Shown here: positions 775-17,195 of the stretch, piece by piece | Layout: the number at the start of each line of letters is the position of its first letter | How positions within the stretch are numbered: position 1 is the stretch's first letter | Source of the DNA: Thermoproteaceae archaeon | GTDB taxonomy: Archaea; Thermoproteota; Thermoprotei; Thermoproteales; Thermoproteaceae | DNA length: 17,195 nucleotides | NCBI GenBank assembly: GCA_020833025.1 | Contig: JAJHRB010000033.1 | Location: 1 to 17,195 of the forward strand | Direction: 5' to 3' | Notes under the pieces: model-generated | Databases searched by the model: none | What the model was told of the DNA's origin: nothing | Seen by the model: only the letters and a program-made list of their open reading frames with translations | Translations under genes and position numbers: made by a program

Positions 775-807
775 GGTTCGCAATAACCCACCCCCTTTTT
801 CCCGGCC
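775..807 (+). promoter_or_regulatory. GGTT(-33) leaderless-type promoter motif for pilin 1
   Basis: GGTT at 775, CC|GTG at 808; member of the recurrent motif. Confidence 0.55.
791..800 (+). terminator. C-rich/oligo-T terminator-like tract
   Basis: CCCCCTTTTT 18 nt after the stop at 773; the motif recurs after stops. Confidence 0.45.
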
Positions 808-1212
808 GTGCGGGGCCTATCGACTGCGGCCTCCGCGGCGCTGATGCTGGCGCTGTCGGTGGCGATAGCGGTGGCGCTGTGGTGGGTGGCAGGGGGCATA
901 GTCGCCAGCACGCCGGCGCCGAGGGTGCAGCTCGACGCGTACAACAGCAAGGTCTTCGGCACGACGGCCAGGGTCGTGCTGAAGTTCGGCGAGAACGTCA
1001 AGTCCATCGACCAGATGCAGATACTGGACCAGACCGGCGCCGCGCTGGCGTCGTGCACCGCGTCGGGCGGCCCGTTCCAGGCGGGCTACAGCTACGAGTT
1101 CACGTGCAGCGGCCAGAGCGTGATCGGCGGCACGAGGCTGGTCGTGCGCGTCGCCTACACGGCGGCAGACGGCTCCAAGAAGGTCGCGAACCTGGAGTGG
1201 GCGCTGGGCTAG
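808..1212 (+). CDS. Archaeal type IV pilin (class III signal peptide), paralog 1
   Basis: MRG|LSTAASAALMLALSVAIAVALWWV: basic-Gly cleavage site followed by a hydrophobic helix. Globular beta-rich domain with a Cys pair; clearly paralogous to 1274-1696. Confidence 0.8.
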   Translation: MRGLSTAASAALMLALSVAIAVALWWVAGGIVASTPAPRVQLDAYNSKVFGTTARVVLKFGENVKSIDQMQILDQTGAALASCTASGGPFQAGYSYEFTCSGQSVIGGTRLVVRVAYTAADGSKKVANLEWALG

Positions 1213-1230
1213 CCTAGCCTAGGGAAAAAT

Positions 1231-1241
1231 CCCCCCTTTTT
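1231..1241 (+). terminator. C6T5 terminator-like tract abutting next promoter
   Basis: CCCCCCTTTTT directly followed by GGTT; the same 15-mer occurs at 9450-9464. Confidence 0.45.
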
Positions 1242-1273
1242 GGTTCCCCTTCTCGCCCGCCTCCCTTCCGGGC
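1242..1273 (+). promoter_or_regulatory. GGTT(-32) promoter motif for pilin 2
   Basis: GGTT at 1242, GTG at 1274. Confidence 0.55.
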
Positions 1274-1696
1274 GTGCGGGGCATCTCCCAGGCCGCCAGC
1301 GCGGCGCTCCTCCTCGCCCTCGCGGCGGCAGTCGCCATGGCGCTGTACCTCGCGCTCAGCGGCATGATAGCGTCCGCGCCCGTCCCGAGGGTGCAGCTCG
1401 ACCCCTACAACACCTACGTGGTGGGAAGCAAGATGTACGTCACCGTTAAGTTCGGCGCCGCCGTGGAGTCAATTGACCTCTCCGGCGTGGCCGTGCTGAA
1501 AAGCGACGGCGCCAACGTCGCGAGGAGCTGCACTTACGCCAACGGGTCGAGGCAGCCGCCCTTCATGCCCGGCGACTCCACCACGCTGGAGTGCTCGCTC
1601 TCCGGCGACCCCGGCCACCGCGTCGTCGTGAGGCTGCCCGTCATAATGCCGCGGGGCGCCAGGGCCGTCGCGCTGCTGGAGTACGTCAGGGGCTGA
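1274..1696 (+). CDS. Archaeal type IV pilin (class III signal peptide), paralog 2
   Basis: MRG|ISQAASAALLLALAAAVAMALYL; shares PRVQLDxYNxxVxG...KFGxxVxSID with pilin 1; Cys pair. Confidence 0.8.
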   Translation: MRGISQAASAALLLALAAAVAMALYLALSGMIASAPVPRVQLDPYNTYVVGSKMYVTVKFGAAVESIDLSGVAVLKSDGANVARSCTYANGSRQPPFMPGDSTTLECSLSGDPGHRVVVRLPVIMPRGARAVALLEYVRG

Positions 1697-1728
1697 TTCC
1701 AAAAGCGCACCCCCCTTTTCGGGCGCCC
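1695..1728 (+). promoter_or_regulatory. Variant (GATT, -34) promoter motif with embedded C6T4 tract
   Basis: GATTCCAAAA at 1695, CC|GTG at 1729. Confidence 0.4.
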
Positions 1729-2724
1729 GTGGTGCTCGACGCGGTCGCGCTGATAGTCCACTACCGCACCTCCAGCACCGAGGCCGCGCTCAAGGCGCTG
1801 GGGAGCCCCGAGGCGAGAAGGACGGCGGTCGCGCTGCGGCTGCGGCGCAGGAGGGGCACGCTCCTCTACCGCATCGCCGAGAGGGCGCTCTTCATGGAGG
1901 CAATGGGCGTGGACAGGAGGGTGGCGACGGAGCTCCTGGCAAGCGAGCTCAGGCTGAGGCTGGAGGACGAGCTCAGGAGGGCGAGGGAGCTCTACAACTT
2001 CGCGGTCTTCGCCGCGTCGATGGCGGTCTTCACCGCGCTGGTAGTCGGCGTGTTCCTCGCGCCGCTCTCGCCCGAGGCCGCCAGCCTGGCGTCCCTCGTG
2101 GCGGCGCTGGAGGCGGTGCCGCTGGCCGCGGTCGAGCGCCTCTGCCCGCCCGCGCGGCGGTGGAACTACGGGCTGGCGGCGGCGGCCATGGCGCCTGCCG
2201 CCCTCTCCCTCGCCGAGCCCTGGCTCTCGCTCCTGACCGTGCCGGCGGCCGCCCTCTACGGCGTCTACTACGCCCGCAGGCTGAGGGAGGCTGGGGAGGA
2301 GCTGGCGATGGCCATGAGGGGGCAGCTGACGCACGCCGAGACGGACACGGCCAGGCAGGCCGCCGAGATAATGAGGGCGGTGAGGACCTCCGGCGCCTAC
2401 GACCTGATGGCCGCCGCGGAGTACATGATGAGGGTGGCCGAGGCCCACATGAGCTCGCTGAGGAGGGAGGGGCTGATGAGGGCGCTCGTGATAGTCTCGC
2501 TGGTAATAATCGCCGCGGCGGCCGCCGCGTCGTTCTGGCCGCAGCTGGCGTACATGGCCGAGCAGGTCAAGGGGGGCCCGCTCAAGCTCTACGTCGTCAG
2601 CGTGAGGCCCGCGATCGGGGCGCTGGCGCTTGTATCAGCCGCCGTCGCCGGCAGGCTGACGGAGTCCTACGCCGCGGCGCCGCTCTACTCGCCGCTGGCG
2701 ATCGCCCAGCTCTTCGTGCCGTGA
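1729..2724 (+). CDS. Polytopic membrane protein, TadC/FlaJ (T2SS F)-like pilus platform; 331 aa
   Basis: Start reassigned from 1591 to GTG 1729 (removes the overlap with pilin 2 and fits the promoter motif). Two helical soluble segments are each followed by TM helices. It lies among pilins and upstream of the assembly ATPase. Confidence 0.55.
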   Translation: MVLDAVALIVHYRTSSTEAALKALGSPEARRTAVALRLRRRRGTLLYRIAERALFMEAMGVDRRVATELLASELRLRLEDELRRARELYNFAVFAASMAVFTALVVGVFLAPLSPEAASLASLVAALEAVPLAAVERLCPPARRWNYGLAAAAMAPAALSLAEPWLSLLTVPAAALYGVYYARRLREAGEELAMAMRGQLTHAETDTARQAAEIMRAVRTSGAYDLMAAAEYMMRVAEAHMSSLRREGLMRALVIVSLVIIAAAAAASFWPQLAYMAEQVKGGPLKLYVVSVRPAIGALALVSAAVAGRLTESYAAAPLYSPLAIAQLFVP

Positions 2725-2942
2725 ACGCGATAGTCCTCGCCCTGCTCCTCGCGGCGCTGGCCGTGGCGCTGGCGTACTACTACTTCGCGTCTGCCGTCGA
2801 GGCCGCGTCGAGGCCGCCGCAGGAGCCGTCGGTCCTCTGCGCCGTGGCGGCGGCCAGGGGCCTCTGGACGCCGAACGCGACCGGCCCGTGCGTCCTCGAC
2901 AACGAGACGGGCGCGGTGATCTACCTCTCCCCGAGCCGCTAG
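2721..2942 (+). CDS. Small single-TM protein, putative minor pilin-like; 73 aa
   Basis: GTGA overlap with the upstream stop; MNAIVLALLLAALAVALAYYYF helix; Cys pair; NAT/NET sequons. It is the 3' part of track ORF 2160..2942. Confidence 0.6.
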   Translation: MNAIVLALLLAALAVALAYYYFASAVEAASRPPQEPSVLCAVAAARGLWTPNATGPCVLDNETGAVIYLSPSR

Positions 2943-2955
2943 AGCCGCCAGCCCC

Positions 2956-2987
2956 GGTTTAACGTCGCCTTTTTCGCGCCCCCGCCC
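2956..2987 (+). promoter_or_regulatory. GGTT(-32) promoter motif
   Basis: GGTTTAAC at 2956, CC|GTG at 2988; CCTTTTT embedded at 2968-2974. Confidence 0.55.
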
Positions 2988-3278
2988 GTGCGGGGGATAG
3001 CGACGCTTCCCGTCGCGCTCGCAGTGGTGATAATCGCCGCCGCCGCGGCCTACCTGGCCTACCAGTGGCACTACGCGCAGCAGAAGGCGGCGGAGAGGGC
3101 CGCGCTCCTCGCCGCGAAGCTGAACGAGGAGCAGCAGCGCTGCCTCTCTGCGGTTGTCTCCGTCGCGGGGAACGCCACGGTCGTGGCGGTGGGAGGGGAG
3201 GCGCACGCCGGCAACTACACGGGCCTCGGCTGCTACGTTGACAGGGACGTCGTCATTCTGGTGCAATGGAGGAGGTAA
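2988..3278 (+). CDS. Putative minor type IV pilin (class III signal peptide)
   Basis: MRG|IATLPVALAVVIIAAAAAYLAY; Cys pair; NAT/NYT sequons. Confidence 0.7.
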   Translation: MRGIATLPVALAVVIIAAAAAYLAYQWHYAQQKAAERAALLAAKLNEEQQRCLSAVVSVAGNATVVAVGGEAHAGNYTGLGCYVDRDVVILVQWRR

Positions 3279-3715
3279 TAATCCTCGCGCTCTCGCTCCC
3301 GCTGGCGCTTGCCGTCATCGCGGTCGTGGGCCACGCCGTGCTGCCGGCGCTGGCCGGCGCGGCCGCCACGGCGGCCGAGTACGCGGAGCTGCGCGACGCG
3401 CCCGTGGTGCTGGTGTCCCTGGGCGGGAGGTCCGTCGCCGTCTGCGTGAACTCCACCGCGCCCAGGGCGGCTCTCGTCCACGACTGCCACGGCGGGCTCT
3501 GCCACGCGCGCGAGGCGAGGCGCGGCTGCCGCGTCAACCCCGGCGGGCTCTGCGCCGAGGGGGAGCCCGGGGGCAGGGCCGAGGGGCGGCGCGGCTGGCC
3601 CTACTGCGAGTGGTACCTCGGGCGCTACAGGGTGGGAGACGTCGTGGCGTTCGAGCTGCGGGGGGAGAGGGCCAGGGTCTTCAAGAACTACACCGTCAGG
3701 GAGCTGAGGCGCTAG
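3266..3715 (+). CDS. Single-TM, Cys-rich exported protein, putative minor pilin/accessory
   Basis: N-terminal hydrophobic helix, six Cys, overlaps the upstream gene, located in the pilus cluster. Confidence 0.55.
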   Translation: MEEVIILALSLPLALAVIAVVGHAVLPALAGAAATAAEYAELRDAPVVLVSLGGRSVAVCVNSTAPRAALVHDCHGGLCHAREARRGCRVNPGGLCAEGEPGGRAEGRRGWPYCEWYLGRYRVGDVVAFELRGERARVFKNYTVRELRR

Positions 3716-3717
3716 CC

Positions 3718-3752
3718 CGTTCCAAAACCAAAAGCGCCCCTTTTTCCCTCCC
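3718..3752 (+). promoter_or_regulatory. Variant (CGTT, -35) promoter motif
   Basis: CGTTCCAAAA at 3718, CC|GTG at 3753. Confidence 0.4.
3737..3745 (+). terminator. C4T5 terminator-like tract
   Basis: CCCCTTTTT 22 nt after the stop at 3715. Confidence 0.4.
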
Positions 3753-5165
3753 GTGAGGCTTCTGGCCGAGCTCCTCGGGCTGGGCCCCGCGAGGAGGCCG
3801 CGCGGCACTGCCTCCAGCAGGCTGTTCCTCTCCGCCGGCACGCCCACGGCGGAGTACGTTGACGTGGAGGAGGTCGAGTGGCTGGGCGTCAAGACGTCAA
3901 TTTACGTCACGGCGATGAGGACGGTCTACGTCATCGACGAGGTCGAGCTGCCCAGGGAGGCGCTGGAGGGGCTGGACGACAGGACCGCGTACTCCGCGCT
4001 CTCGCGCGCAGAGGCCGAGATGGCCAGGAGGGGCGTGGATCCCTACGCGAGCCCCAAGGAGGCCGTCGCGATAATCGAGGGGAAGCTGAGGGGGAGGCTC
4101 AGGGAGCGCGCGGGCGCGGCCGCCGCGCTCCTCTACCGCTGGTACTACGCCTACGGCACGATAACGCCGCTGCTGCTGAGCCGCCGGCTGGGCATAACCG
4201 ACGTGCTGGTGACGCTGGCGGGCAACTACGTCGAGGTGGAGTCGCACAGATACGGCGCGGGCCTGGCGACGAACCTGGAGCTCGCGGACGGGGACAGGGA
4301 GCACCTCCGCGACGTGATCTCCAGGCGCGTGGTCCCGCTCTCCGCCGCCAGGCCCTTCGCGTCCCGCTACGACGAGCAGCTCCAGGTGCGCGTCACGGCG
4401 ATAGTGCCGGACGTGGCGCCCCGGCCGGCCTACGCCTTCCGCGTGATGAACGTGACGTGGACGGCGCCGCTGTTTGTCGCGATGGGCGGCGCGGAGCCGT
4501 GGCAGATGGCCTACCTCTGCGCCCAGTGGAGGAGGTACAGGCACGTGCTGGCAGTGGGCACGCCCGGCAGCGGGAAGACCTCGCTGATAAACGCCGTGCT
4601 CTCGTGCACGCAGACGAAGAGGCGCCTGGCGATAATACAGTCCGTGCCGGAGCTGAGGGTGCCGCAGGCCTCCTTCATCGCCACCGAGCGCCACGCCTTC
4701 GGCGCGGGGATATCGGAGGTGCTGATGGCAGACCTCGTGCAGAAGTTCGGGCTGCGCGCAAACTCCGACGTGGGGATAAACGAGCTGCTGACAGAGGCGG
4801 ACACCAGGGCGTTCGTCACTGTTGCCTTCGCGGGCTTCGGCGCCGCGGCCACGCTGCACGCGACCGACGTGCAGGAGGTCCTGCTGAGGCTCAGGAGGCT
4901 CGGGGTGAGCGAGGCGGAGCTGGAGGCGCTGCTCCCCAGGCTCTACATACCCGTGATGAGGAGGGAGGTGACCGAGAGGGGGGTGAGGCGCCGCGTCGCG
5001 GCCATATACGCGCCGAGGGACGGCAGGCACGAGCCCGTGACGGAGGGGGAGGCGCTGGAGGACCCCGAGGTGAGGGAGTGGGCGAGAATAATCGCCGAGG
5101 CGGCGAGGTCGCCGGCGCTCTGGAGCCCCGAGGCGTGGGTCTCGTACCTCAGGCAGTTCGACTAG
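3753..5165 (+). CDS. Type II/IV secretion ATPase (TadA/VirB11/FlaI-like), pilus assembly ATPase
   Basis: Walker A GTPGSGKT; Asp-box-like IIQSVPEL; LRANSDVGINE (Walker B region); TLHA His-box; preceding N-domain 'DVLVTLAGNYVEVE...' typical of this family. Confidence 0.8.
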   Translation: MRLLAELLGLGPARRPRGTASSRLFLSAGTPTAEYVDVEEVEWLGVKTSIYVTAMRTVYVIDEVELPREALEGLDDRTAYSALSRAEAEMARRGVDPYASPKEAVAIIEGKLRGRLRERAGAAAALLYRWYYAYGTITPLLLSRRLGITDVLVTLAGNYVEVESHRYGAGLATNLELADGDREHLRDVISRRVVPLSAARPFASRYDEQLQVRVTAIVPDVAPRPAYAFRVMNVTWTAPLFVAMGGAEPWQMAYLCAQWRRYRHVLAVGTPGSGKTSLINAVLSCTQTKRRLAIIQSVPELRVPQASFIATERHAFGAGISEVLMADLVQKFGLRANSDVGINELLTEADTRAFVTVAFAGFGAAATLHATDVQEVLLRLRRLGVSEAELEALLPRLYIPVMRREVTERGVRRRVAAIYAPRDGRHEPVTEGEALEDPEVREWARIIAEAARSPALWSPEAWVSYLRQFD

Positions 5166-5166
5166 C

Positions 5167-5198
5167 CGTTGCTAATCTCTCCCCGCGCGCCGGCCTCC
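5167..5198 (+). promoter_or_regulatory. Variant (CGTT, -32) promoter motif
   Basis: CGTTGCTAAT at 5167, CC|ATG at 5199. Confidence 0.5.
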
Positions 5199-5480
5199 AT
5201 GCCCAGGCAGCTGGTCCCCGGCCAGGCGCAGAGGGAGGAGGCGCCAGCGCAGCAGCCCCAGCGCCCGCCGGCGCCGGCCGTCCTCGACCTCGAGCCCTAC
5301 CTGAGGGTCTACGCGGAGTGCAAGAGGCGCTCCTACGACTGCAAGCCCGTCGTCCAGCTGATCGCGGACCAGATACGCGACCACGTGAGGGCGGCGGTGA
5401 TGCTGGAGCTGCAGCGCCTCGGCCTCGACAAGTCAATCATCCAGGACCTCAAGCAGATATGCATAGACCTGGAGGCGTGA
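5199..5480 (+). CDS. Hypothetical protein, 93 aa (Gln/Pro-rich N-terminus, helical C-terminus)
   Basis: ATG 5199 fits the promoter motif; the stop overlaps the next GTG. Confidence 0.6.
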   Translation: MPRQLVPGQAQREEAPAQQPQRPPAPAVLDLEPYLRVYAECKRRSYDCKPVVQLIADQIRDHVRAAVMLELQRLGLDKSIIQDLKQICIDLEA

Positions 5481-5737
5481 AGATCGAGAGGGAGCTGAAG
5501 AGGCGCGGGGAGGACGTAGAGCCCGAAAAGCGCCGCCTCCCAAAGACGAGGAAGGCCTTCGAGAGGCTGCTCAAGTCGCTGGCTAAGAAGTACGGCCAGC
5601 CGTACTACGTCGTGAGGAACACGGTGCAGCAGTACGGCATAACGTACACGCTGAGGGCGCTTGAGGTGACCCCGCCGCGCGAGTCAACGCTCTCCAGGCT
5701 CCTCAAGAGGCTGAGGGGGGCATGGTCTCGAAGGTAA
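5477..5737 (+). CDS. Small basic hypothetical protein, 86 aa, possibly DNA-binding
   Basis: GTGA overlap with the upstream stop, GGAGG upstream; K/R-rich (MKIERELKRRGEDVEPEKRRLPKTRK...). It is the 3' end of track ORF 3878..5737. Confidence 0.6.
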   Translation: MKIERELKRRGEDVEPEKRRLPKTRKAFERLLKSLAKKYGQPYYVVRNTVQQYGITYTLRALEVTPPRESTLSRLLKRLRGAWSRR

Positions 5738-6444
5738 TAGCCGCCGTCAGCAACAAGGGGGGCGTCGGGAAGACCACCGTGCTGGCGAGCATTGCCTTCG
5801 CGCTCGCCAAGGAAACCAGGTTCCGCGCCGTCTTTGTCGACGTGACGCCGGACGCCGCCGGCTCGGCGATGCTGGCGCCCGGCTGCCACGTCCGCTTCGG
5901 CACGTACGCGTACCTCTCCGGCGTTGACGCGATAGAGATGTGCACGCAGGAGGCAGACGGCGCCCTCGCCGACACCCTGCCCCCGGGCCCCGCGCCGCCG
6001 GGCGCCAGGCTGAGGGGAGACAGGCTGGTGAGCCTGCTGGAGATGCTGAGGGCGGAGTACAACATCGCGCTCGTGGACCTCCCCGGCGCCGACGAGGCCC
6101 ACAGCGACGTCATCGCCGCGGCCGTGAGAGCGGCGGACATGTACCTCCTCGTCGCGGAGCCCGCCAGCGTGAACGTGGCCCACGGCCTCAGGCAGAGACT
6201 GCCGCAGGACAGGCCCGTCGTCGCCGTCCTCAACAAGTTCGTTGACGGCGCGCCGGGAAAGCACGAGATAGAGGCGATGGGAACCAGCAAGTTCGGCAAG
6301 TTCGCCTACGTGATACCCTTCGAGGGCCCCGTCCACAACGCCGTCGTGCAGAGAAAGCTGCCAGTCCTGGTCAAGGGGGCCAGGCTCGTGGAGGTCGTGG
6401 ACCGCATTGCGGCAGACCTCCAGCGCCTAATACTCCACGTCTAG
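5722..6444 (+). CDS. parA: ParA/MinD-family ATPase
   Basis: Deviant Walker A KGGVGKTT near the N-terminus; VFVDVTPD; IALVDLPG; VVAVLNK; C-terminal IPFE...AVVQRKLP. Confidence 0.8.
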   Translation: MVSKVIAAVSNKGGVGKTTVLASIAFALAKETRFRAVFVDVTPDAAGSAMLAPGCHVRFGTYAYLSGVDAIEMCTQEADGALADTLPPGPAPPGARLRGDRLVSLLEMLRAEYNIALVDLPGADEAHSDVIAAAVRAADMYLLVAEPASVNVAHGLRQRLPQDRPVVAVLNKFVDGAPGKHEIEAMGTSKFGKFAYVIPFEGPVHNAVVQRKLPVLVKGARLVEVVDRIAADLQRLILHV

Positions 6445-6446
6445 GC

Positions 6447-6478
6447 GGTTTCCCAGGGCCCTCCCCGCGGCGCCGGCC
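6447..6478 (+). promoter_or_regulatory. GGTT(-32) promoter motif
   Basis: GGTT at 6447, CC|GTG at 6479. Confidence 0.55.
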
Positions 6479-8728
6479 GTGGCCTCCCGGGAGGAGGTCG
6501 CCAGGCTCGAGAGGTTCAGGCAGGGCATAGAGGAGTTCAGGCGGCGGTACCGCGACGCGCTGCCGCCGGAGGAGCTCGAGGAGTGCGTCAAGGAGGCGGC
6601 GCGGCACAATTTCACGCTGCTGAGGGCCTATGCGTGCGCGGCCGAGAGGCTCGCGAGGATGGAGAGGAAGGGACAAGTAAAGGAGAGGGAGAGAGAGGAG
6701 GGAGTAAAGGCAAGAAAGGCAGAAGAGAGGGAGACAAAGAGGGAGGAGGGGGCCGCGCGGCCCGCGCCCGGCCTCCGCGACCTGCTCGGCGCGCTCAAGC
6801 GCCTGGAGTGGCAGGGGCACGCCGCCCTCGCGTCCCTCGCCCTCTGCGCGGCGCACCCGCTCCTCTGCCTCGCCTCCCTGCCGGCGGCAGCTTTACTTTA
6901 CGCCTACCGGAAGAACACAGTGCCGATGTGGACGGACGGGGGCGCGCTGGTCTGGCGCGGGAGGCGGTACCGCTTCCACCGCGTGGAGCGCGTCTTCCGC
7001 GACGTCGTCGGGATGGGGCCGCACGAGTTCAGAAACGTGCTGCTGGCAACGACGCACGAGTACAACGGCGTGTACTACCGCGAGGGCAGGGCGTGGGTCC
7101 TGATCGCCGAGGGCAGGCCGGTCGAGGAGGCGAGGGCCGTGCTCAGGCGATTCGGCGTTGTCGTCGAGCCGCGGCCGGAGGGGCGCGCGCCGGTCGAGCT
7201 GCCGAGAGAGCGCCTCAGGCGCTACCTCCACTGGGCCCTCCTCCCGCTCGCGGCCGGCGCCGTCTCCCCGCTCGCGCTGCCGGCGGCGGCCCTCGCGTCA
7301 ATTGTGATCTACCTCCTCACCGCGAGGGACCTCGGGCACAGGCCGCGCCGGCTGAGGGCAATTAGCCGCAACGCGAGCTACTACTCGGTCCCGGACGTGG
7401 AGAGCGTGCACGCCGTCGCGCTCGCCGCGCAGCCCCTCCTGCGCGAGGCGCTCGTGGTGTGGGAGCACGACCCCGAGCACGTCATCAGGCTGGAGCGCAG
7501 GGGCGCCTGGACCGAGAGGCTCGCCTGGTGGTTCCAGTCGAAGTGGCGCCTCCAGAGGCTGGACGTGATCCAGGTGGCGAGGCAGCGCGCGATGAACCTC
7601 CACGAGCGGGGCTTCTTCGCGTGCGGCCTCGTTGACGGCAGGCCGGCCGCCTTCACGCTGGGCCGCCCGGCGGACGCCGTCCCGGCCTTCACGCTGGACC
7701 TGGCCGAGCTCACGCCCTACGCGCTCCTGCTCTCCCCGGCGGAGTGCGGGGAGGGCAGCGTGAGGCTGGGCGTTGACGACGCCGGGCGCGAGGTCTGCTT
7801 CAGGCCGGAGGACCTCCAGACTCCGCACGCCTTCCTCGTGGGCAAGACCGGCTCCGGCAAGACCACGCTGGGGATGCTCGTCGCGGCGCAGCTGGCGAGG
7901 CGCGGCGTGGTGCCCGTGGCGGTGGACCCGCACGGCCACTGGGCCCGCATCGAGAGGTGGGTCCCAGGGGTGCAGCTGGTGGACGCCAGGCGCCTCGCGC
8001 CCCCGCTCCAGCTTAGGGACCCCGGCGACGTGGACCTCCTCCTGGACGCGCTGAGGGCGGCCGGCGTTCAGGTGTTCGACGCGCACTTCACCGTGCTGCT
8101 GAGGGCGCTGGACCGCTGCGGCGCCCCGCTCCCGCTGGCCAAGCTGCCGGACTGCCTGCTCGCCGCTCGCGACCTGGCGAGCGCGTGGGCAGTGGACGCG
8201 ATCTACGGCCGCGTGCTCAGCCTGGCCAGGATGGAGGCCGCGCGCGTTGACCCCGGCAGGCCGATCGTGGTCCACACCGCCGGCAGCACCGAGCCCGACG
8301 CCCGCATGAAGCTGATACTGTGGACCGCCTGGCTGGTGAGCGAGGCGAAGGCGACGTGCCCCGAGCCGCCGTGCGGGCTGCGCTGGCTGCTCTTCATAGA
8401 CGAGGCGCACGCGCTCATGCGCGACGTCAGCCACATAGCGAGCGTCTGGCGCGAGCTGCGCAAGTTCGGCGTCGAGGCCGTGCTGGCGACGCAGAGCGTT
8501 CTCGACATACCGCAGCCGCTAATAGAGAACTCCGGCCTCAAGGCGGTCCTCGCCGTGGAGCCCGAGGCCGTGCCGGTGATCGCCCAGCGGCTCTACATAG
8601 AGCAGTCGAGGCTGCAGAGGGTCGCCTACGAGTCCCTGCCGGAGGAGCGAGTCGCCGTGATACGCGTCGAGGGCAGGTCGCCGGTTTACGCCCGCCTCCA
8701 CAGCCCGGACTCGCTGCTGGCGCGCTAG
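6479..8728 (+). CDS. Membrane-anchored HerA/FtsK-superfamily ATPase (VirB4/VirD4/CedB-like)
   Basis: HAFLVGKTGSGKTT Walker A; VAVDPHGHW; LFIDEAH Walker B; RELRKFG..LATQS motif; two hydrophobic segments in the N-terminal half. Confidence 0.8.
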   Translation: MASREEVARLERFRQGIEEFRRRYRDALPPEELEECVKEAARHNFTLLRAYACAAERLARMERKGQVKEREREEGVKARKAEERETKREEGAARPAPGLRDLLGALKRLEWQGHAALASLALCAAHPLLCLASLPAAALLYAYRKNTVPMWTDGGALVWRGRRYRFHRVERVFRDVVGMGPHEFRNVLLATTHEYNGVYYREGRAWVLIAEGRPVEEARAVLRRFGVVVEPRPEGRAPVELPRERLRRYLHWALLPLAAGAVSPLALPAAALASIVIYLLTARDLGHRPRRLRAISRNASYYSVPDVESVHAVALAAQPLLREALVVWEHDPEHVIRLERRGAWTERLAWWFQSKWRLQRLDVIQVARQRAMNLHERGFFACGLVDGRPAAFTLGRPADAVPAFTLDLAELTPYALLLSPAECGEGSVRLGVDDAGREVCFRPEDLQTPHAFLVGKTGSGKTTLGMLVAAQLARRGVVPVAVDPHGHWARIERWVPGVQLVDARRLAPPLQLRDPGDVDLLLDALRAAGVQVFDAHFTVLLRALDRCGAPLPLAKLPDCLLAARDLASAWAVDAIYGRVLSLARMEAARVDPGRPIVVHTAGSTEPDARMKLILWTAWLVSEAKATCPEPPCGLRWLLFIDEAHALMRDVSHIASVWRELRKFGVEAVLATQSVLDIPQPLIENSGLKAVLAVEPEAVPVIAQRLYIEQSRLQRVAYESLPEERVAVIRVEGRSPVYARLHSPDSLLAR

Positions 8729-8738
8729 CCCTCCCCCT

Positions 8739-8840
8739 CAGGGCCCTACTCGCAGGGGTCTGAGGCAGGGGTCTTCAGCGCAGGGGTGATTACCCCTGCG
8801 GTGAATTCCCCTGCGCCAGGCCCCTGATGCAGGGCCCCTG
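8739..8840. repeat. Palindromic array A: four CAGGG(G) boxes facing four (C)CCCTG boxes
   Basis: Forward boxes start at 8739, 8753, 8766, 8781; reverse boxes end at 8798, 8813, 8826, 8840. Every pair sums to 17579, giving exact dyad symmetry at 8789/8790. Confidence 0.9.
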
Positions 8841-8860: not shown

Positions 8861-8892
8861 GGTTGAACGCGCCCGCTGGCGCTCCCGCCGCC
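8861..8892 (+). promoter_or_regulatory. GGTT(-32) promoter motif for wHTH gene
   Basis: GGTTGAAC at 8861, CC|ATG at 8893. Confidence 0.55.
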
Positions 8893-9423: not shown

Positions 9424-9449
9424 CCCGCGCCCTCCCTCCCGCAATTCCT

Positions 9450-9460: not shown

Positions 9461-9492
9461 GGTTGCTCGCCCGCCCTCACCCCGGGCCCGCC
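9461..9492 (+). promoter_or_regulatory. GGTT(-32) promoter motif for HerA
   Basis: GGTT at 9461, CC|ATG at 9493. Confidence 0.55.
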
Positions 9493-10824: not shown

Positions 10825-11312
10825 TTACCGCCGCGGACGCTGGCGTGCGCATCGCCAGGTGCTACTCGCTCGAGACGCGCCGCGTCGAGACCGTGGGCGT
10901 CGCGGCCATAGCCGCCGTGACGTCTTCTGGCGCTGTTGACGTGATACACTTCAGCGTCACGTCGCCGGAGACCCGCGACTTTGAGTTAGAGGTGTTGCGC
11001 CACTACAGCCGCACGGCAGAGATTTGCGTCGTTGACGGGCCGCCCGCGGCAGTCTGCAGGAAGAACGTGGGCATCATAAAGTCCGGAAACCCCGCCGCCG
11101 GCTGGCGCTGCGTTGCGCTCGGGCCGTACGCTGTCTGCGCCGACTTCGAGCTTAGCGTCGACATCGCGAGACTGGCAATCAGGCTAAACGCGCTGGCGCA
11201 CAGAGTGGCGCACGAGGCGGCAAGGACGCTGTTCCGCCGCGAGCTGCTGAGGCGCCGCTGCGTGCTGGCAGAGGGCGCCCACGTCGTGCCGGAGCTGTCG
11301 TACTACCATTAA
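10821..11312 (+). CDS. Miniature NurA-like (RNase H fold) nuclease; 163 aa
   Basis: ITAADAG, FELEVL, ICVVDGP and LAHRVAHEAA match the order of NurA catalytic motifs; ATGA overlap with herA; GGGTGA SD. Confidence 0.55.
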   Translation: MITAADAGVRIARCYSLETRRVETVGVAAIAAVTSSGAVDVIHFSVTSPETRDFELEVLRHYSRTAEICVVDGPPAAVCRKNVGIIKSGNPAAGWRCVALGPYAVCADFELSVDIARLAIRLNALAHRVAHEAARTLFRRELLRRRCVLAEGAHVVPELSYYH

Positions 11313-11316
11313 TCCT

Positions 11317-11324
11317 CCTTTTTT
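11317..11324 (+). terminator. Oligo-T terminator-like tract
   Basis: CCTTTTTT 5 nt after the stop at 11312, in a pyrimidine-rich run. Confidence 0.5.
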
Positions 11325-11346
11325 CCCTCCCCCTCTTTCTGCGCTT

Positions 11347-11447
11347 CAGGCCCCTGTAGCAGAGGTCTGGGACAGGGGTCTTCATCGCAGGGGTAACTAC
11401 CCCTGGGACGAAAGCCCCTGCCCCAGGGCCCTGCCCTCAGACCCCTG
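11347..11447. repeat. Palindromic array B, homologous to array A
   Basis: Forward boxes at 11347, 11360, 11373, 11388; reverse boxes end at 11405, 11420, 11433, 11447 (pair sums 22793, outermost 22794). The core 11373-11405 is 30/33 identical to 8766-8798. Confidence 0.9.
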
Positions 11448-11480
11448 TACCTGTGTCAGGGGGTTACTTTCAGCCCACAG

Positions 11481-11492
11481 AAAGGCTTTTAT
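11481..11492 (+). promoter_or_regulatory. Canonical-looking archaeal BRE-TATA (AAAGGC TTTTAT)
   Basis: Purine run followed by TTTTAT; the only such element I found upstream of a gene here. Confidence 0.5.
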
Positions 11493-11561
11493 GGTCTCGC
11501 AATGTCGGGCTTCGTGGCGCAGGGAACCGTCCAGACACAGGTCCAGGAGGTGCCGGTCTCG

Positions 11562-12506
11562 ATGGCGCTGAGGGAGGTCGAGGAGGTCCTCAAGAAAATG
11601 GGCTACGGCACGAAGCCCCTCTTCGAGAGCCCCTACGAGGTGAGGCGCAGGTGCGCCCGGCTGGAGGGCCGCACGCGCTGGAGGAGGACGCCCGACCTCG
11701 AGCGCGTGATGCGCCTGGTGGGCGCGTCCAACATTGCCGCCGTCCGCCTCCTCGCGCCGCACCTCGCCGAGCCCGTCTGCGTCCCGCCGCCGGAGTTCCT
11801 GCCCGCCGCCGCGGGCCTCGTGCCGGTCTACGAGGTCAGGTGCGAGGAGCCGCGGAAGTGCGCTGACGTCGCCGAGGCCGCGGCCGCCGCGCTCGGCATC
11901 GAGCTGCCGGAGATGGTCAGGCGGATGCTCCTGGGCGCCCCCGAGGAGGCGGGGCCCGCCGAGGCGCCCCCGCCACCTCCCAAGGCGGAGGCCGCCCCGG
12001 CAGCGCCGGCCCCCGAGACAGGGGCGGAGGCTCCCGAGACGGAGAGAAGGCCGGAGCCGGCCGCCCCGGAGGGCGCGTGGATAGAGCTGGTCGCCGACGT
12101 CGCCCGGCAGAGGCCGGAGGCCGTCGAGGCGGCGCTCAGGGCGGCCGGCTTCGAGTGGCTCGCGCCCGCCATCAGGGACGCCACCACGAGGAGGGCGGTG
12201 CAGGAGCTGCTCTCCGACCCCGAGCTCGCGAGGACCCTCGCCGAGGGAGGCAAGGCAATCAAGGAGCTGCTGAGGGCACCGCCGCCGGCGGCCGGGCCGG
12301 CGCCCCAGCACTGGCCTAAGAGAGACGCCGAGCTCCTAGCGAGGGAGCTCCCGCGCTCGCGCGACGCCGCGGACCTCGCCGCGAGGCTCTTCGCCGCGCT
12401 CAGCGGCTGCGACCTGGACGCCGCGAGGTCCGTCATCGACGCGCTGGCGTCGGCGCCCTGCGACCAGCTGAGGCAGCTCGGCAGGCTGCTCTCGAGGGCG
12501 CGCTGA
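11562..12506 (+). CDS. Hypothetical multi-domain protein with Pro/Ala/Glu linkers; 314 aa (alternative starts 11502, 11514)
   Basis: GGAGGTG SD at 11546-11552, 9 nt before ATG 11562; in frame with track ORF 11502..12506; the stop overlaps the next ATG. Confidence 0.65.
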   Translation: MALREVEEVLKKMGYGTKPLFESPYEVRRRCARLEGRTRWRRTPDLERVMRLVGASNIAAVRLLAPHLAEPVCVPPPEFLPAAAGLVPVYEVRCEEPRKCADVAEAAAAALGIELPEMVRRMLLGAPEEAGPAEAPPPPPKAEAAPAAPAPETGAEAPETERRPEPAAPEGAWIELVADVARQRPEAVEAALRAAGFEWLAPAIRDATTRRAVQELLSDPELARTLAEGGKAIKELLRAPPPAAGPAPQHWPKRDAELLARELPRSRDAADLAARLFAALSGCDLDAARSVIDALASAPCDQLRQLGRLLSRAR

Positions 12507-12913
12507 TGTCCTGCCGCCACTTCTACGCGCTGCTGCTGCTCGGCGGAAAGCGGTCCGGCGGCCCGCCCGTGCCGTGGGGCGCCGTGGCCGAGTCGCTGCG
12601 GAGGGTCGTCTCGTGGTACGTGGAGAGCAGGGTCCCGCCGGAGAGCTACTACGTCACGCTGTCGCCGCCGCTCGTGCGGCGCGCGGTCTACGAGTACGCG
12701 TCCGAGCATAAGTGCAGGTACGCCGAGATGTGGAAAGAGCGCCTCAGGGACGGCACGAGGACCGTCATGCGCGTGTTAATGCACGAGGCGCGGTGCTGGG
12801 CGAGGCGCTGCCCCGAGCCGCGCCCTGAGGTCCTCACCGTGCCCCGCGCCTGGCTGCTGGAGTACCTAAGGCGCCTGGGCGGCCCCTGCTCGCGGGGGCC
12901 TAACAGCTTCTAG
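12506..12913 (+). CDS. Hypothetical protein, 135 aa
   Basis: TGATG stop/start overlap; normal amino-acid composition; followed by a T-tract. Confidence 0.65.
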   Translation: MSCRHFYALLLLGGKRSGGPPVPWGAVAESLRRVVSWYVESRVPPESYYVTLSPPLVRRAVYEYASEHKCRYAEMWKERLRDGTRTVMRVLMHEARCWARRCPEPRPEVLTVPRAWLLEYLRRLGGPCSRGPNSF

Positions 12914-12921
12914 CCTTTTTT
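12914..12921 (+). terminator. Oligo-T terminator-like tract
   Basis: CCTTTTTT immediately after the stop at 12913. Confidence 0.5.
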
Positions 12922-12942
12922 CTAATTTTCTAATTTTTCTGA
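12918..12942 (+). repeat. AT-rich TTTTCT(A/G)A tandem repeat x3
   Basis: TTTTCTAA at 12918 and 12926, TTTTCTGA at 12935. Confidence 0.7.
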
Positions 12943-12949
12943 TCCTCCC

Positions 12950-13606
12950 GTGCTCCTCTACACGAGACGCAGGGTCGAGGAAATTGCCAGGCAGTACGAG
13001 GAGAGAATCAGGAGGCTGGAGGGGGAGCTCGAGAGGCTGAGGGCCGAGGCCGAGTTCTGGCGGCGGCGCGCGGAGTTCCTTGAGCGATCCTACCGCGAGG
13101 AGGTGGTGGAGCTGAGGGCCTACGCGAGGCGGCTGGAGGAGTCGTGCGCCTCAAGCCCCCCGGCCCCGCCGCTCGCGGACGAGGAGAGACTCGCGATGGC
13201 AGTGGAGATAGACCACCTGCGGAGGACCGTCTCCGGGCTGCAGAGGAGGCTGGCCGAGTGCGAGAGGCGGGCGGAGAAGTGGCTCGACAGCTGGCACGAG
13301 CTCTTCATGCGCTACACGCCGCTGGAGCGCGAGCGCGTGCAGTGGGCAGCGGCGCACGCGGGCCACGTCGTCATACGCGTCGAGCCCTTCGAGGAGCTCC
13401 GCGTTATTCTCAACGCGCGGGGGCAGCGGCTGGAGCTGTTAAGGCGGCGGGACGGGAAGTACATCACGCACTACATCCCGCTCCCGCCCGGCGCTGGCCC
13501 CCTCGCGGCGGTCCCAGAGCTGGGGATAGCCGCGTGGAGGCCCGCCCGCCCCGACGCGATAAGGCGGCTGGCCGAGGACCTCGCGCGCAGAATGGCCTCG
13601 CTGTAG
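12950..13606 (+). CDS. Hypothetical coiled-coil protein, 218 aa
   Basis: E/R/L heptad-rich N-terminal two-thirds with a small beta-rich C-terminal domain; CC|GTG start. Confidence 0.65.
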   Translation: MLLYTRRRVEEIARQYEERIRRLEGELERLRAEAEFWRRRAEFLERSYREEVVELRAYARRLEESCASSPPAPPLADEERLAMAVEIDHLRRTVSGLQRRLAECERRAEKWLDSWHELFMRYTPLERERVQWAAAHAGHVVIRVEPFEELRVILNARGQRLELLRRRDGKYITHYIPLPPGAGPLAAVPELGIAAWRPARPDAIRRLAEDLARRMASL

Positions 13607-13607
13607 C

Positions 13608-13640
13608 GGTTGCAAATCGCGCTGCGGCGCGCCGCGCGCC
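13608..13640 (+). promoter_or_regulatory. GGTT(-33) promoter motif
   Basis: GGTTGCAAAT at 13608, CC|GTG at 13641. Confidence 0.55.
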
Positions 13641-14573
13641 GTGAGCCGCGCGTCGTTCCACCACGTCCTGAGCCCCCACGGGTGGGCGGCCTGGCGCTTC
13701 CCGGCCCCCGCGGACCAGCAGGCGGTCGAGGAGGCATTCGCCGCGCGCGGCGAGATACCGAGGGCGCGCCCCGAGCCCCCCAGGCCCTGGCTCTGCGTCT
13801 ACCTCTGGCCGGCCCTGGAGCTGCCGCGTTGGAGGACGATGGACGTAGGCCACCACGCCAAGGCCATCACGCCGTCAGTGACGTCCGCGTGCCTCGCGCA
13901 TGGCGAGCCCCCGAGGTCGGGGGCCGTCAGGTGGGCGGAGCTCAAGCTGGGGGGCAGGCACTACCGCGTCACGCTCGTCCCGGACGCTGCAATGGCCGCG
14001 CCGCCGGGAGGATTTGCCCACAGGCTCTACATACTGTGCAAGGCCAGCGAGTGCGACCTCTCGCCTCTCTTCGCCCTCGCCGGCCCCCGCGACTTCCCCG
14101 AGCTCGCCGCGGCCGTGACGCGGGCCTACTACGTCGGGCCGGAGCCGCACCTGCGGTGGGTTCCCGGCTGCGAGTACGTTGACTGCGGCAACGTCAGGGG
14201 GATCAGGGAGGGAGAGGAGGCCCTCGCGAAGACGGCGCTCGACATCCTGGCCGACGAGCGAAGGCTGAGGGCGCTCATAAGGCTCACGCACGACCTCTCG
14301 CCGGACGCGCGCGCCGAGGGCTTCGAGCTGGGCCTCTGGACCGTCAGCCCGCGGGAGGCGCCGGGCGCTGACGGCCTGTGGAGGGTGCTGGAGGCGCACG
14401 TCCAGAGGCGGGACCTGGCCGCCGTCGAGGACGCCATCGCGACGCTGAGGAGGCTGCTGGCTGGCGAGAGAGTGGAGGGCGAGTTCACCACGGCGGCCAG
14501 CCTGGCGCTGATGTACATAGCGCACATGGTGCCGTTCCCGCGCATCACGGACAGGCTGAGGCTCCCGGCGTGA
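13641..14573 (+). CDS. Hypothetical protein, 310 aa
   Basis: Long ORF with normal composition, preceded by the promoter motif; no family recognised. Confidence 0.65.
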   Translation: MSRASFHHVLSPHGWAAWRFPAPADQQAVEEAFAARGEIPRARPEPPRPWLCVYLWPALELPRWRTMDVGHHAKAITPSVTSACLAHGEPPRSGAVRWAELKLGGRHYRVTLVPDAAMAAPPGGFAHRLYILCKASECDLSPLFALAGPRDFPELAAAVTRAYYVGPEPHLRWVPGCEYVDCGNVRGIREGEEALAKTALDILADERRLRALIRLTHDLSPDARAEGFELGLWTVSPREAPGADGLWRVLEAHVQRRDLAAVEDAIATLRRLLAGERVEGEFTTAASLALMYIAHMVPFPRITDRLRLPA

Positions 14574-15151
14574 GGTACCTGCTCCTCGCGCTCTCGGAGA
14601 TATCGCGCAGGCGCTACCGCGCCGACCTCGCGGCGCCCCTCTGGCTCTCGCGCCTCCTCGGCATTCCCCCGCGCGCGGCCCTGGCGCTGGGCCTTGAGCC
14701 GCACCTCTGGCCGCTGGCCCTCTGGCGGTCCGAGCCGGAGTGCAGCGCGCCGCCCTGGCCCGACCCCTACACGGGCGCGATACTGACGGCCGTGAGGGGC
14801 GGCTGCGAGGAGGTCAGGGCGAGCCTGCAGGGCGGGCTCACGGAGAGCGAGGAGGAGAGGCACCTCGTGCTGACCGCGGCGTCGCTCGACGGGGTCAGGG
14901 TGCTCCATCCGGAGGGCGGGGCGAGGTGGCGCGTCATGCCGCTGGACGAGATACGCGGGGAGGCCGCCCGCTGGCTGGGGGACAGGCTGGCGGAGCTCTG
15001 CGCGCCGATGATAAGCCCGAAGCTCGTGGCGGAGGCGCGCGAGTACGCGGCGCTGGCGGCGCTGGGAGCGCTGAGGGCGGCCCCCGGCGGGTACTACGCG
15101 CCATCGCCGCAGCTCCTGCTCCTCGCCTGCGTTTGTTTCAACCCTTCTTGA
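14570..15151 (+). CDS. Hypothetical protein, 193 aa
   Basis: GTGA overlap with the upstream stop; start reassigned from 14378 to 14570. Confidence 0.6.
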   Translation: MRYLLLALSEISRRRYRADLAAPLWLSRLLGIPPRAALALGLEPHLWPLALWRSEPECSAPPWPDPYTGAILTAVRGGCEEVRASLQGGLTESEEERHLVLTAASLDGVRVLHPEGGARWRVMPLDEIRGEAARWLGDRLAELCAPMISPKLVAEAREYAALAALGALRAAPGGYYAPSPQLLLLACVCFNPS

Positions 15152-15197
15152 GGTTCAGCGCCGGGAGCCCCCAGCGCCCCCGGCACCTCTCCCCTAG

Positions 15198-15207
15198 CCC
15201 CCTTTTT
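15198..15207 (+). terminator. C5T5 terminator-like tract
   Basis: CCCCCTTTTT three nt before the GGTT of the next promoter. Confidence 0.45.
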
Positions 15208-15210
15208 ATC

Positions 15211-15243
15211 GGTTTTACAAGCGGGGCGCGGTCCCGGCGCGCC
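15211..15243 (+). promoter_or_regulatory. GGTT(-33) promoter motif
   Basis: GGTTTTACAA at 15211, CC|GTG at 15244. Confidence 0.55.
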
Positions 15244-15978
15244 GTGACGAAGGCCTCCAAAGAGGGGAGGGCCAGCGTGGCGGCCGTCCTCGCGGAGCTG
15301 GGCCTCTACAGCCCGGCGGGATCGGGCATCTACGTCATTTACGGCGAGCCCGCGACGGGCAAGACCACGCTCGCCGCCAGGCTGCTGGAGGAGGCCTCCC
15401 GCGAGGGCGCGCCGGCCGTCTACATCGCGACCGAGCCAAACGTGCGGCTCTACGGGCAGTGGCAGAAGATCAAGTCGCTCCTGCCGGCGAGGGTGAAGTG
15501 CGACGGCGTGGAGGTGGACGCGGTGCAGTACCACGACAGCTACACGACGCTGATGTACGCCGCGCTCAAGGCCCTGCAGTGCAAGAGTCTCGTCATGGCG
15601 ATCGACAGCGTCACGGCGCTGGCGCTCCACGAGCAGGCCCGCCGCATGGCGGAGACCGGGAGGCTGGAGATACTGCCGATAATACGCGAGGTCAGCGCGT
15701 TCGCGAACGCGTTCGCGCAGCTGATAGCAAGCCGCCTTGCCTCCGAGGAGGGGAGGCAGGCCCAGGTCTACCTCGTGGCCCAGGCGAGGGCGGCCATAGG
15801 GCAGCCCTGGCACGGCGAGCCCCTCGCGCCGAGCTTTGCCTTGCGCGCGCAGCACAACGTGGGCGCGTGCGCCCGGCTCATCGTCCTCAACAGCGGCGAG
15901 AGATTGCTCAAGGTGGTCTGGCACAGGGACGCGAGGTACGCAGGCAAGGCGGCTAAGATACGCCTGGAGCCGCTCTAG
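15244..15978 (+). CDS. RecA-superfamily ATPase (RadB/aRadC/KaiC-like single domain); 244 aa
   Basis: IYVIYGEPATGKTT Walker A; VYIATE; MAIDSVTAL Walker B; VYLVAQAR motif; no RadA N-terminal HhH domain. Confidence 0.75.
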   Translation: MTKASKEGRASVAAVLAELGLYSPAGSGIYVIYGEPATGKTTLAARLLEEASREGAPAVYIATEPNVRLYGQWQKIKSLLPARVKCDGVEVDAVQYHDSYTTLMYAALKALQCKSLVMAIDSVTALALHEQARRMAETGRLEILPIIREVSAFANAFAQLIASRLASEEGRQAQVYLVAQARAAIGQPWHGEPLAPSFALRAQHNVGACARLIVLNSGERLLKVVWHRDARYAGKAAKIRLEPL

Positions 15979-15983
15979 GGGGC

Positions 15984-15993
15984 AAAAAAGAGG
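15984..15993 (-). terminator. Terminator-like tract for the convergent minus-strand gene
   Basis: Reads CCTCTTTTTT on the - strand just after the TAG at 16002-16000. Confidence 0.5.
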
Positions 15994-15999
15994 CGGGGG

Positions 16000-16793
16000 C
16001 TAGGGCCCGCCGGCGAGCCGCTGAATCTCCTCGAAGGGCACCTCGTTGAGCTTTCTGCTCCAAATTACAACGTATCTGTTTCTGGAACAGAAGCGATATA
16101 GCGGCGTCTCGCACGGCGAAACAACAATTGGCTCGAAGGCCAAGAGCTCTCTCGTTTCGAGGTAGCGATTGACGCTAATGATATAAGGTCTCATCATGGC
16201 GGACCACGCCTCGCCGTAGCGCTCGTTCAGCACGAACGCCAGCGCATCATCAAGCATAATAGGACTAATTATGTAAGGCCGCAGAACGTACAGCAGCCCG
16301 ACCACAAGGCGGCGGATGCCCTCGTCGTAACGCTTGAGGCACAGCGGAATGCCAATCTTGCTGCCGTCAACAAACCGCTGAAGCATTCGCAATCTTAGCT
16401 TGGCCCATCTACTCACGTCTGGTGGGTAGTTTCTCTCGCTCCACTCGATCAGATCGCTCAGGGTATTCGCCGAGGCCTCCTGCAGCAAATCTAGGCTCAC
16501 CCTAAAGCCGCGCTCCACCGTGAAGTGCAAGACGCTGCTAATGTGTGACACGAGGTACCTCTCGGCGCCCTCCGGTACCCCGACTTCTAACACCTCCCCC
16601 TCCTCGCAGTCCTTGACCCTCACGAACAGCGTGTTTAGACCCTCGCGCCGCGAGACGTTATACAGCGCTCTCAAAAACGTCGTTTTCCCCGACCCCGGCC
16701 GGCCGGTTAGTGGGCCCCGCGCGGGTCTGCCCCGGCCCACCGGGGCCAGGCCGCTATTAGCTGTCTCAGTATCTTCTCGGCCCTCCCTCCCAT
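16000..16793 (-). pseudogene. P-loop NTPase split by a -1 frameshift near 16715 (pseudogene or sequencing error); about 264 aa if repaired
   Basis: ATG 16793 (GGTT at -32, CC|ATG) reads MGGRAEKILRQLIAAWPRWAGADPRGAH* (stop 16709-16707). The adjacent frame continues LTGRPGSGKTT...IMLDDA to TAG at 16000. Confidence 0.55.
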
Positions 16794-16856
16794 GGCCCGG
16801 CCAGCGCGGGCGTCCACACTGAACCGGTTCAACCAGCCCCTCCGGGCCGGCGCCCC
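16794..16856. promoter_or_regulatory. Bidirectional promoter centred on the perfect palindrome TGAACCGGTTCA (16820-16831)
   Basis: The palindrome supplies GGTT on both strands, 32 nt from ATG 16793 (-) and 31 nt from GTG 16857 (+). Confidence 0.6.
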
Positions 16857-17195
16857 GTGTACCTACACTCGCTCCCCGCGAGCTCGCCCGAGGAGTTCGC
16901 CGAGGCGGTGATCTCGCTGAGGCGCCTGGTCGGCCTGGACGCCGCAAGGGGCTACGTCCTCTCGCCGTCTCCCCTCCCGCCGCCCTTCGTCGTGGAGGGC
17001 AGGGAGGAGAGGCCGGCCAGGCTCTGCGAGGGGAGGCCCCCGCTGCCGGCGGCCGCGTACTGGGCCCAGAGGAGACTCCCCCGCGCCGCCGCCTCCTCGA
17101 CGGCGCCGCGCGGCGTCACGTGGCTGAGGCCCCTGGGGCTCTTCAGGGTGGGCCGCGAGTGGCAGGTCGCGACGTCCTGCGTCGCGAGGCCGCCG
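16857..17195 (+). CDS. Hypothetical protein, 3'-truncated by the window edge (MYLHSLPASSPEEFAEAVISLRRLVGLDAARGY...)
   Basis: 113 open codons from CC|GTG 16857 with the promoter motif; absent from the ORF track because no stop falls in the window. Confidence 0.6.
   Translation, partial: MYLHSLPASSPEEFAEAVISLRRLVGLDAARGYVLSPSPLPPPFVVEGREERPARLCEGRPPLPAAAYWAQRRLPRAAASSTAPRGVTWLRPLGLFRVGREWQVATSCVARPP

Follow-up and report, generated by a model that had tools for sequence, protein, structure and literature searches.

The initiation of transcription in archaea is taught as a process that depends on the TATA box and the transcription factor B recognition element (BRE), and the standard model requires the TATA box. 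For Pyrobaculum aerophilum, the summary given in PMC2151090 includes ten mapped 5′ ends that carry no 5′ untranslated region. The ups genes of Sulfolobus acidocaldarius have ultraviolet-inducible promoters marked by an ANTTTC box (Le et al., 2017; PMC5817253), and transcription factor B3 coregulates the Ups, Ced and HerA operons according to Beltran et al. (2023; PMC9905601). Pyrobaculum possesses two TFB paralogues, and a role at a subset of genes has been suggested for one of them (Bernick et al., 2012; PMC3388794). Here we analyze a 17,195-bp stretch of DNA (hereafter the window), which is the complete contig C94 of a metagenome-assembled Thermoproteaceae genome (G000; 1.56 Mb in 126 contigs) and a syntenic member of a Pyrobaculum family of pilus/VirB4-like mobile elements. 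Most of its transcription units are preceded by a GGTT box whose geometry, enrichment, specificity relative to the host and conservation in orthologous promoters are observed directly. We consider it fairly probable that GGTT is the G+C-shifted form of a box RRTTC (R, purine), an upstream core-promoter element common to this element family and read by the host pre-initiation complex.

When distance to the start codon is counted from the motif's first G, the box lies at −32 ± 1 before 10 of the 22 starts in the window, where 0.073 would be expected (binomial p 1e-19), and it is the top signal when all four-base words are compared at all offsets (13,312 tests). The ten starts for which a first-pass annotation of this sequence had proposed an exact GGTT 31–33 nucleotides (nt) upstream all carry it, and the near-variants proposed before 1729, 3753, 5199 and 12950 exist, albeit in looser form: CGTT at 32 nt for 5199, GATT at 34 nt for 1729, CGTT at 35 nt for 3753 and a T-run for 12950. 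C occupies −1 at all 14 unit-first starts, giving the pyrimidine at −1 and purine at +1 of archaeal core promoters, and CC directly precedes 13 of the 14, as had also been claimed, with GC at 1274 as the exception. The promoters of the window are the following:

775..778, + strand: GGTT box, 33 nt before GTG 808 (pilin-like, protein VRGLS...); a TAG stop lies upstream at 771–773.
1242..1245, + strand: GGTT box, 32 nt before GTG 1274 (pilin-like), with a C6T5 terminator-like run immediately upstream of the box.
1695..1698, + strand: GATT variant, 34 nt before GTG 1729, its GA being part of the upstream TGA stop; orthologues have AATTC and then a T-run at 33 nt.
2956..2959, + strand: GGTT box (CCGGTTTAAC), 32 nt before GTG 2988 (pilin-like); orthologues read AATTCGTTAAA or AATTCGTTTTTTT.
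3718..3721, + strand: CGTT variant, 35 nt before GTG 3753 (T2SSE/FlaI-like ATPase).
5167..5170, + strand: CGTT variant, 32 nt before ATG 5199, at the head of the operon 5199 – 5477 – 5722 (ParA).
6447..6450, + strand: GGTT box, 32 nt before GTG 6479 (HerA/VirB4/VirD4-like ATPase).
8861..8864, + strand: GGTT box (CCGGTTGAAC), 32 nt before ATG 8893 (winged helix-turn-helix protein, wHTH).
9461..9464, + strand: GGTT box, 32 nt before ATG 9493 (DUF87/HerA-like), immediately 3′ of a C6T5 run.
11481..11493, + strand: host-type BRE/TATA (AAAGGCTTTTATG), by comparison with the host profile; the T-run begins 27 nt upstream of GTG 11514, and ATG 11502 shares the reading frame of this GTG.
12916..12926, + strand: T-rich promoter (TTTTTTCTAAT), an A/T-rich form of the box, before GTG 12950.
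13608..13611, + strand: GGTT box (TAGCGGTTGCAAAT), 33 nt before GTG 13641; orthologues read AATTCAATTTTTTCCCC.
15211..15214, + strand: GGTT box, 33 nt before GTG 15244 (KaiC/RecA-like ATPase).
16820..16831, both strands: palindrome TGAACCGGTTCA, comprising two back-to-back boxes, with GGTT at 16826–16829 (+) 31 nt before GTG 16857 and GGTT at 16825–16822 (−) 32 nt before ATG 16793.

The usual arrangement upstream of the box is TAG-C-GGTT. CGGTT as a word is not over-represented in the window (16 occurrences on both strands, 22 expected from shuffles), and 8 of the 16 lie at promoters.

To obtain a host profile, approximately 1,200 long open reading frames (ORFs) were called on contigs with host-like G+C, and their upstream sequence was profiled; G+C is 62.6% in the source genome overall and 70.0% in the window. 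At host starts TTTT peaks at −27, TTTA at −26, and TTAA and TAAA at −25, with A enriched at −32/−31 and C at −1, and the host promoter aligned on its TATA box reads A-A-A-n-C-TTTTAAA. GGTT at −33 to −31 precedes 14 of 1,194 host starts (6.5 expected), RRTT[C/G/T] stands directly upstream of the host TATA box in 3 of 310 cases, and the strict relative-type motif, RRTTCWWTTTTTY, is as scarce as its reversed control across 18 genus genomes. The earlier proposal that the box forms a class private to the element, rather than the host consensus, thus withstood the comparison with the host and its genus. The C at −1 is a host-wide trait, found at 63% of TATA-supported host starts. No enrichment of the low-G+C, T-run form of the box was found in the genome's own contigs. 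Pyrobaculum spherical virus has a canonical AAAA-TTTAAAAA at the same distance from the start, and the box is therefore not general to the mobile elements of the genus.

The phenomenon is nonetheless much broader than the window. The pattern CCGGTT-N26-C-RTG occurs at 26 further sites on nine contigs of the source genome with 70–72% G+C; C precedes the GGTT at 92% of sites of this class versus 20% of other GGTT, and the sequence separating box from start is rich in C and has almost no A. On these contigs AACCGGTT lies exactly midway between divergent starts 63–64 nt apart in three unrelated gene pairs (C94, C109, C23), and these sites are two directional boxes back to back. A metagenome scan by alignment of VirB4-like proteins yielded 42 related loci, in which RRTTC occurs 138 times at exactly 32 nt and 47 times at 33 nt before ORF starts, against some 20 at other distances. 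With starts chosen by protein homology alone, the orthologous promoters of six genes read RRTTC(WW)TTTTT (W, A or T), as in ctGATTCTTTTTTTC, ctAATTCAATTTTTTCCCC and GGTTCTATATTTTCC, and most of the 26 promoters with a called start among orthologues of the 6479 gene read xRTTC followed by T-rich sequence approximately 32–34 nt upstream. The box is conserved among relatives at ~40–60% protein identity while its flanks diverge.

These relatives place the box with respect to the host promoter. Their T-run begins at −27, the start of the host TATA box, and RRTTC at −32 to −28 covers the host BRE slot and the base before TATA, with purines at −32/−31 but TT(C) in place of the host's A-n-C. RR frequently coincides with the final two nucleotides of an upstream stop (TGA, TAA or TAG), and the promoter then starts within the stop codon itself. 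The A/T share between −27 and −21 is 72% in the relatives versus 45% in the window, where AA remnants stand at −27/−26 (GGTTCAAC, GGTTGAAC, GGTTGCAAAT), TT is kept at −30/−29, and GG takes the place of RR. GGTT in the window thus appears to be the same box as RRTTC, with RR shifted to GG and the T-run eroded, and would represent the G+C-rich extreme of the series formed by the relatives. The TT had been taken to mark the position where the TATA box begins; this does not fit, as the host TATA mode is −27, the TT lies at −30/−29, and the relatives' T-run begins from −27 behind RRTTC. The box would instead occupy the BRE slot and the BRE/TATA junction, 2–3 nt upstream of the TATA start previously assigned.

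The promoter role of the box and the identity of its reader are inferred from these sequence patterns. In relatives of lower G+C, the box at −32 to −28 precedes a T-run starting from −27 at the host TATA position; in the 70% G+C element the purines would have become GG and the T-run would have largely eroded, leaving (C)CGGTT as nearly the sole visible signal. Aided by the C at −1 and the purine at +1, the box would position host TBP, a TFB and RNA polymerase, and transcription would most likely begin on the start codon or right beside it. Unit-first genes would then have leaderless mRNAs, and downstream genes, coupled by overlap, would use Shine-Dalgarno sites. In this manner the element probably acquires a promoter flavour of its own. 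An intact, densely coding element would here have retained its five-base box in place as the TATA tract became G+C-rich. The intermediate states can be seen in 40-odd relatives, which provide a series of natural mutations that may reveal which promoter positions selection protects.

Several observations sit uneasily with this explanation. Only 9 of the 19 GGTT on the + strand are promoter sites, and the roughly ten others lie away from starts, such that the box by itself is insufficient to specify a promoter. The window sites retain just 4–5 conserved bases, and most window promoters have no recognizable TATA box. Archaeal core promoters typically have an A/T-rich box of ~8 bp centred ~25 nt upstream, whereas several window promoters have no A/T-rich tract at the TATA slot and read, for example, CTCGCCC or CCCAGGG there. 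Part of the purine constraint at RR may come from coding, since RR doubles as the end of a stop codon. Moreover, the assignment of the window to the source genome depends on binning and on the homologous elements in Pyrobaculum genomes.

As for what reads the box, the host's basal factors appear the most likely candidates. One TBP gene and two TFB genes, the latter both full-length open frames, are present in the source genome, with none on the high-G+C contigs, and the alternative TBP that the first-pass annotation had entertained, or a TBP or TFB encoded by the element, is therefore unsupported. A TnpB/Cas12f-like TnpB-only insertion sequence on host contigs (C89:55546–56805, minus strand; also present on C47 and C122) has CCGGTTCCCC 32 nt upstream of its ATG, which weakly suggests that host factors suffice. 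An attractive minority case, possible though in our view unlikely, is that the second host TFB paralogue (TFB2-like, contig C54) reads the box as a variant BRE, with the element family as a TFB-selected regulon in the fashion of a sigma factor. The position of the box in the BRE slot, unlike the host AAA, would suit this arrangement, as would the divergence of the two proteins: the C62 TFB has a canonical helix, VTEVTVRNRY, and the C54 TFB reads STEGSLRELL at the aligned place, with a Gly aligned to a valine of human TFIIB. We take that valine to be BRE-contacting and the helix to be the BRE-reading one of the TFIIB/TFB–DNA structures. C54-type TFBs occur in all 17 Pyrobaculum and 5 sister-genus genomes searched, and the idea of two paralogues, one possibly serving a gene subset, was already put forward by Bernick et al. 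(2012). However, RR at −32/−31 and C at −28 would equally suit an ordinary host BRE context, and the paralogue is found throughout the genus, the elements only sporadically. More doubtful still is the bolder proposition that crenarchaeal promoters work without TATA given a 5-bp RRTTC/GGTT in the BRE slot, read by this conserved second Thermoproteaceae paralogue; if true, it would provide a sigma-factor-like private transcription channel for mobile elements and perhaps for DNA-transfer genes. The series of relatives also bears on a possible difference in promoter specificity between the two Pyrobaculum TFB paralogues.

We regard it as improbable that a protein of the element itself binds GGTT at every promoter, whether as an activator or as a global repressor overlapping the BRE/TATA region. 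The box is private to the family, and the window encodes both a wHTH protein (8893) and an 86-residue basic protein (5477–5737) conserved in 14 loci. However, the wHTH and the 11502/11562 protein, the dedicated factors that had been suggested, belong to the variable module of the element and have homologues in none of the 46 related loci that keep the box, and because of this absence neither is the family promoter factor. The basic protein lies directly before ParA, a placement typical of partition adaptors, and an asymmetric 4–5 bp site at a fixed −32 is unlike known dimeric operators. The host-contig insertion sequence and the lack of any TFB or TBP gene on the high-G+C contigs also speak against an element-borne reader. 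Far less probable again is that GGTT is no transcription signal but a junction, recombination or terminator-linked remnant inherited with gene cassettes. Several boxes do directly follow stop codons or C-run/T5 terminator-like tracts, but the distance is fixed to the downstream start (31–33 nt) and not to the upstream stop (0–20 nt away), back-to-back copies are symmetric for divergent starts, overlap-coupled genes have no box, and the persistence of the box across relatives at the protein identities given above, amid diverged flanks, is equally hard to reconcile with a passive remnant.

Two further candidates were rejected. A bacterial −35 box, of Thermus or an actinomycete, is ruled out by the archaeal 16S ribosomal RNA gene of the genome, its TBP and TFB genes and its relatives, which carry the name Pyrobaculum in public records. 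GGTTSAACC as the operator of a dimeric regulator fails in that the palindromes occur solely at back-to-back promoters, unidirectional promoters lack the left half, and the 10-mer is depleted genus-wide. In most of the 18 genus genomes CGGTTSAACC occurs several-fold less often than its reversed control, and the palindrome is apparently avoided.

The box also bears on the annotation of genes and starts, since it marks true starts and transcription-unit boundaries in G+C-rich elements that are hard to annotate. The overlap-coupled genes 2721, 3266, 5477, 5722, 10821, 12506 and 14570 all lack it, as the first-pass annotation had held. A Shine-Dalgarno-like match precedes 6 of these 7 internal genes versus 1 of the 14 unit-first genes, the pattern expected if unit-first genes are leaderless. 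The remaining gene listed as lacking the motif, "11562," has an ordinary AAAGGCTTTTATGG promoter with its T-run starting 27 nt before the in-frame GTG 11514, and its start is thus probably GTG 11514 or ATG 11502 rather than 11562. Two small overlap-coupled genes (GTGA overlaps) are absent from a plain ORF list: GTG 2721–2942, for a 73-residue membrane protein conserved in 10 loci, and GTG 5477–5737, for the basic protein before ParA, which is probably a partition adaptor. The claim that the motif selects sensible starts, including one gene missed by the ORF track, is supported by the minus-strand ATG 16793: the N-terminal peptide after it (~ ..WPRWAGADPRG) recurs in several homologues among those whose 5′ sequence was inspected; homologues of the gene occur in L013, L020, L029, L035, L038, L039 and L054. 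The corresponding gene is:

16000..16793, − strand: AAA ATPase gene; the promoter-positioned ATG opens just 28 codons, and the P-loop ORF lies in the −1 frame.

In all 8 copies with a promoter-positioned start, the P-loop ORF of this gene is out of frame, by +1 in six and by −1 in two (window region 16700–16793, minus strand). The reading frame switches within G+C-rich sequence immediately upstream of the P-loop, where most copies have C or G runs, and this could reflect programmed or slippage-based frameshifting or a phase-variable tract.

Two features of the promoters themselves may be added. The pilin-like genes share with the 1729 and ATPase genes a C-run/T5–7 tract between box and start, at about −21 to −9 (790–807, 1712–1728, 3735–3752, 2968–2987). 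It is kept in orthologous promoters (L020, L027) and could serve strong promoters as an A/T-rich promoter-proximal element. The promoter of the 12950 gene (12916–12949) contains a tandem TTTTCTAA-TTTTCTAA-TTTTTCT repeat and is the sole strongly A/T-rich intergenic stretch in the window.

The window is densely coding, with nearly all genes on a single strand. Its Pfam-supported gene set comprises three pilin-like genes (808, 1274 and 2988, whose proteins start V-R-G-(L/I)), a T2SSE/FlaI-like gene, ParA, HerA/VirB4/VirD4-like, wHTH, DUF87/HerA-like and KaiC/RecA-like genes and an AAA ATPase. Gene order is syntenic with a 24-kb metagenomic contig (L020) and further relatives, and the variable module lies between the VirB4-like gene (6479) and 13641. 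In complete Pyrobaculum chromosomes, homologues of the VirB4-like protein lie within G+C-rich segments with host-like DNA on their flanks, and because of this setting we term the window a mobile element; genomes G005 and G012 contain integrated relatives of it. No terminal repeats were found in the window, tRNA and Rfam scans of it gave no matches, and Pfam, PHROGs and a protein atlas offered no function for 13641–14573, 11502–12506, 12506–12913 or 5477–5737. Searches with the VirB4-like protein returned no match in genome_contigs (single-protein search) or viral_contigs (protein alignment), and the wHTH had none among phage and virus records. Mobile elements are normally A/T-richer than their hosts. 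The element contigs of this genome (C4, C23, C49, C52, C53, C94, C105, C107, C109) have 70–72% G+C, 8–10 points above the host, and relatives of the element range from 57 to 67%. The sole long intergenic gaps of the window contain a pair of paralogous ~100-nt hairpin repeats (8739–8837 and 11349–11447) that are rich in CAGGGG/CCCCTG, share 80% identity and have fold z-scores of −6.9 and −4.3. Copies lie on at least 14 further contigs of the genome, often close to contig ends, and none in the metagenomic relatives. By appearance they are a family resembling miniature inverted-repeat transposable elements or origins of transfer (oriT), and they probably fragmented the assembly.

Among described systems, the gene set of the window is similar to that of the Thermoproteales Ted loci for DNA transfer, where VirB4-like, ParA/VirC1-like and HerA-like genes occur together (PMC9905601). 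With the ANTTTC promoters of the Sulfolobus ups genes the window shares a short non-palindromic box at the promoters of crenarchaeal pilus and DNA-transfer genes, and a TFB paralogue is implicated there. The Sulfolobus box differs in being a hexanucleotide upstream of the core promoter (approximately −46 to −39) that involves a truncated TFB3, whereas the present box lies at −34 to −28 and just two TFB genes, both full-length, were found in the source genome. Closer are the chromosomal AAGGTTTTTCCCC promoters of Pyrobaculum pilus-like and DNA-transfer-like clusters, which are likewise position-locked and cluster-specific, combine GGTT with a T-run and CC, and stand before pilus, ParA and VirB4-like genes. 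RGGTTTTTCCC is far commoner than its reversed control in nearly every genome of the genus and is clustered: six copies fall inside 9 kb of G012, and in G006 and G008 pairs lie close to VirB4/HerA-like genes. In these promoters, however, GGTT lies 29–31 nt from the start, with GG at −30/−29, the T-run from −28 and an upstream AA that equals the host BRE (rechecked in G012 and G008). The window and its relatives do not have this GGTTTTTCC spacing and keep 32–33 nt and TTC, so the AAGGTTTTTCCCC promoters represent a related flavour in a different register and not the same box. With the canonical leaderless BRE/TATA promoters of archaea, finally, the box shares a fixed distance of ~30 nt to the start (31–33 nt at 10 window starts and 32 nt at 138 sites in relatives), C at −1, a purine at +1, purines at −32/−31, an A/T-rich tract from −27 in the lower-G+C relatives, and the lack of a Shine-Dalgarno sequence before unit-first genes. 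It differs from the canonical host promoter in having TTC at −30 to −28 where the host has A-n-C, and in a TATA slot that is a pure T-run rather than TTTTAAA in the relatives and mostly G+C in the window, with approximately 1% of host promoters alike. Taken together, the arrangement is best read as a family-specific variant of the archaeal core promoter, whose TATA tract would have been almost wholly lost in the G+C-rich members.

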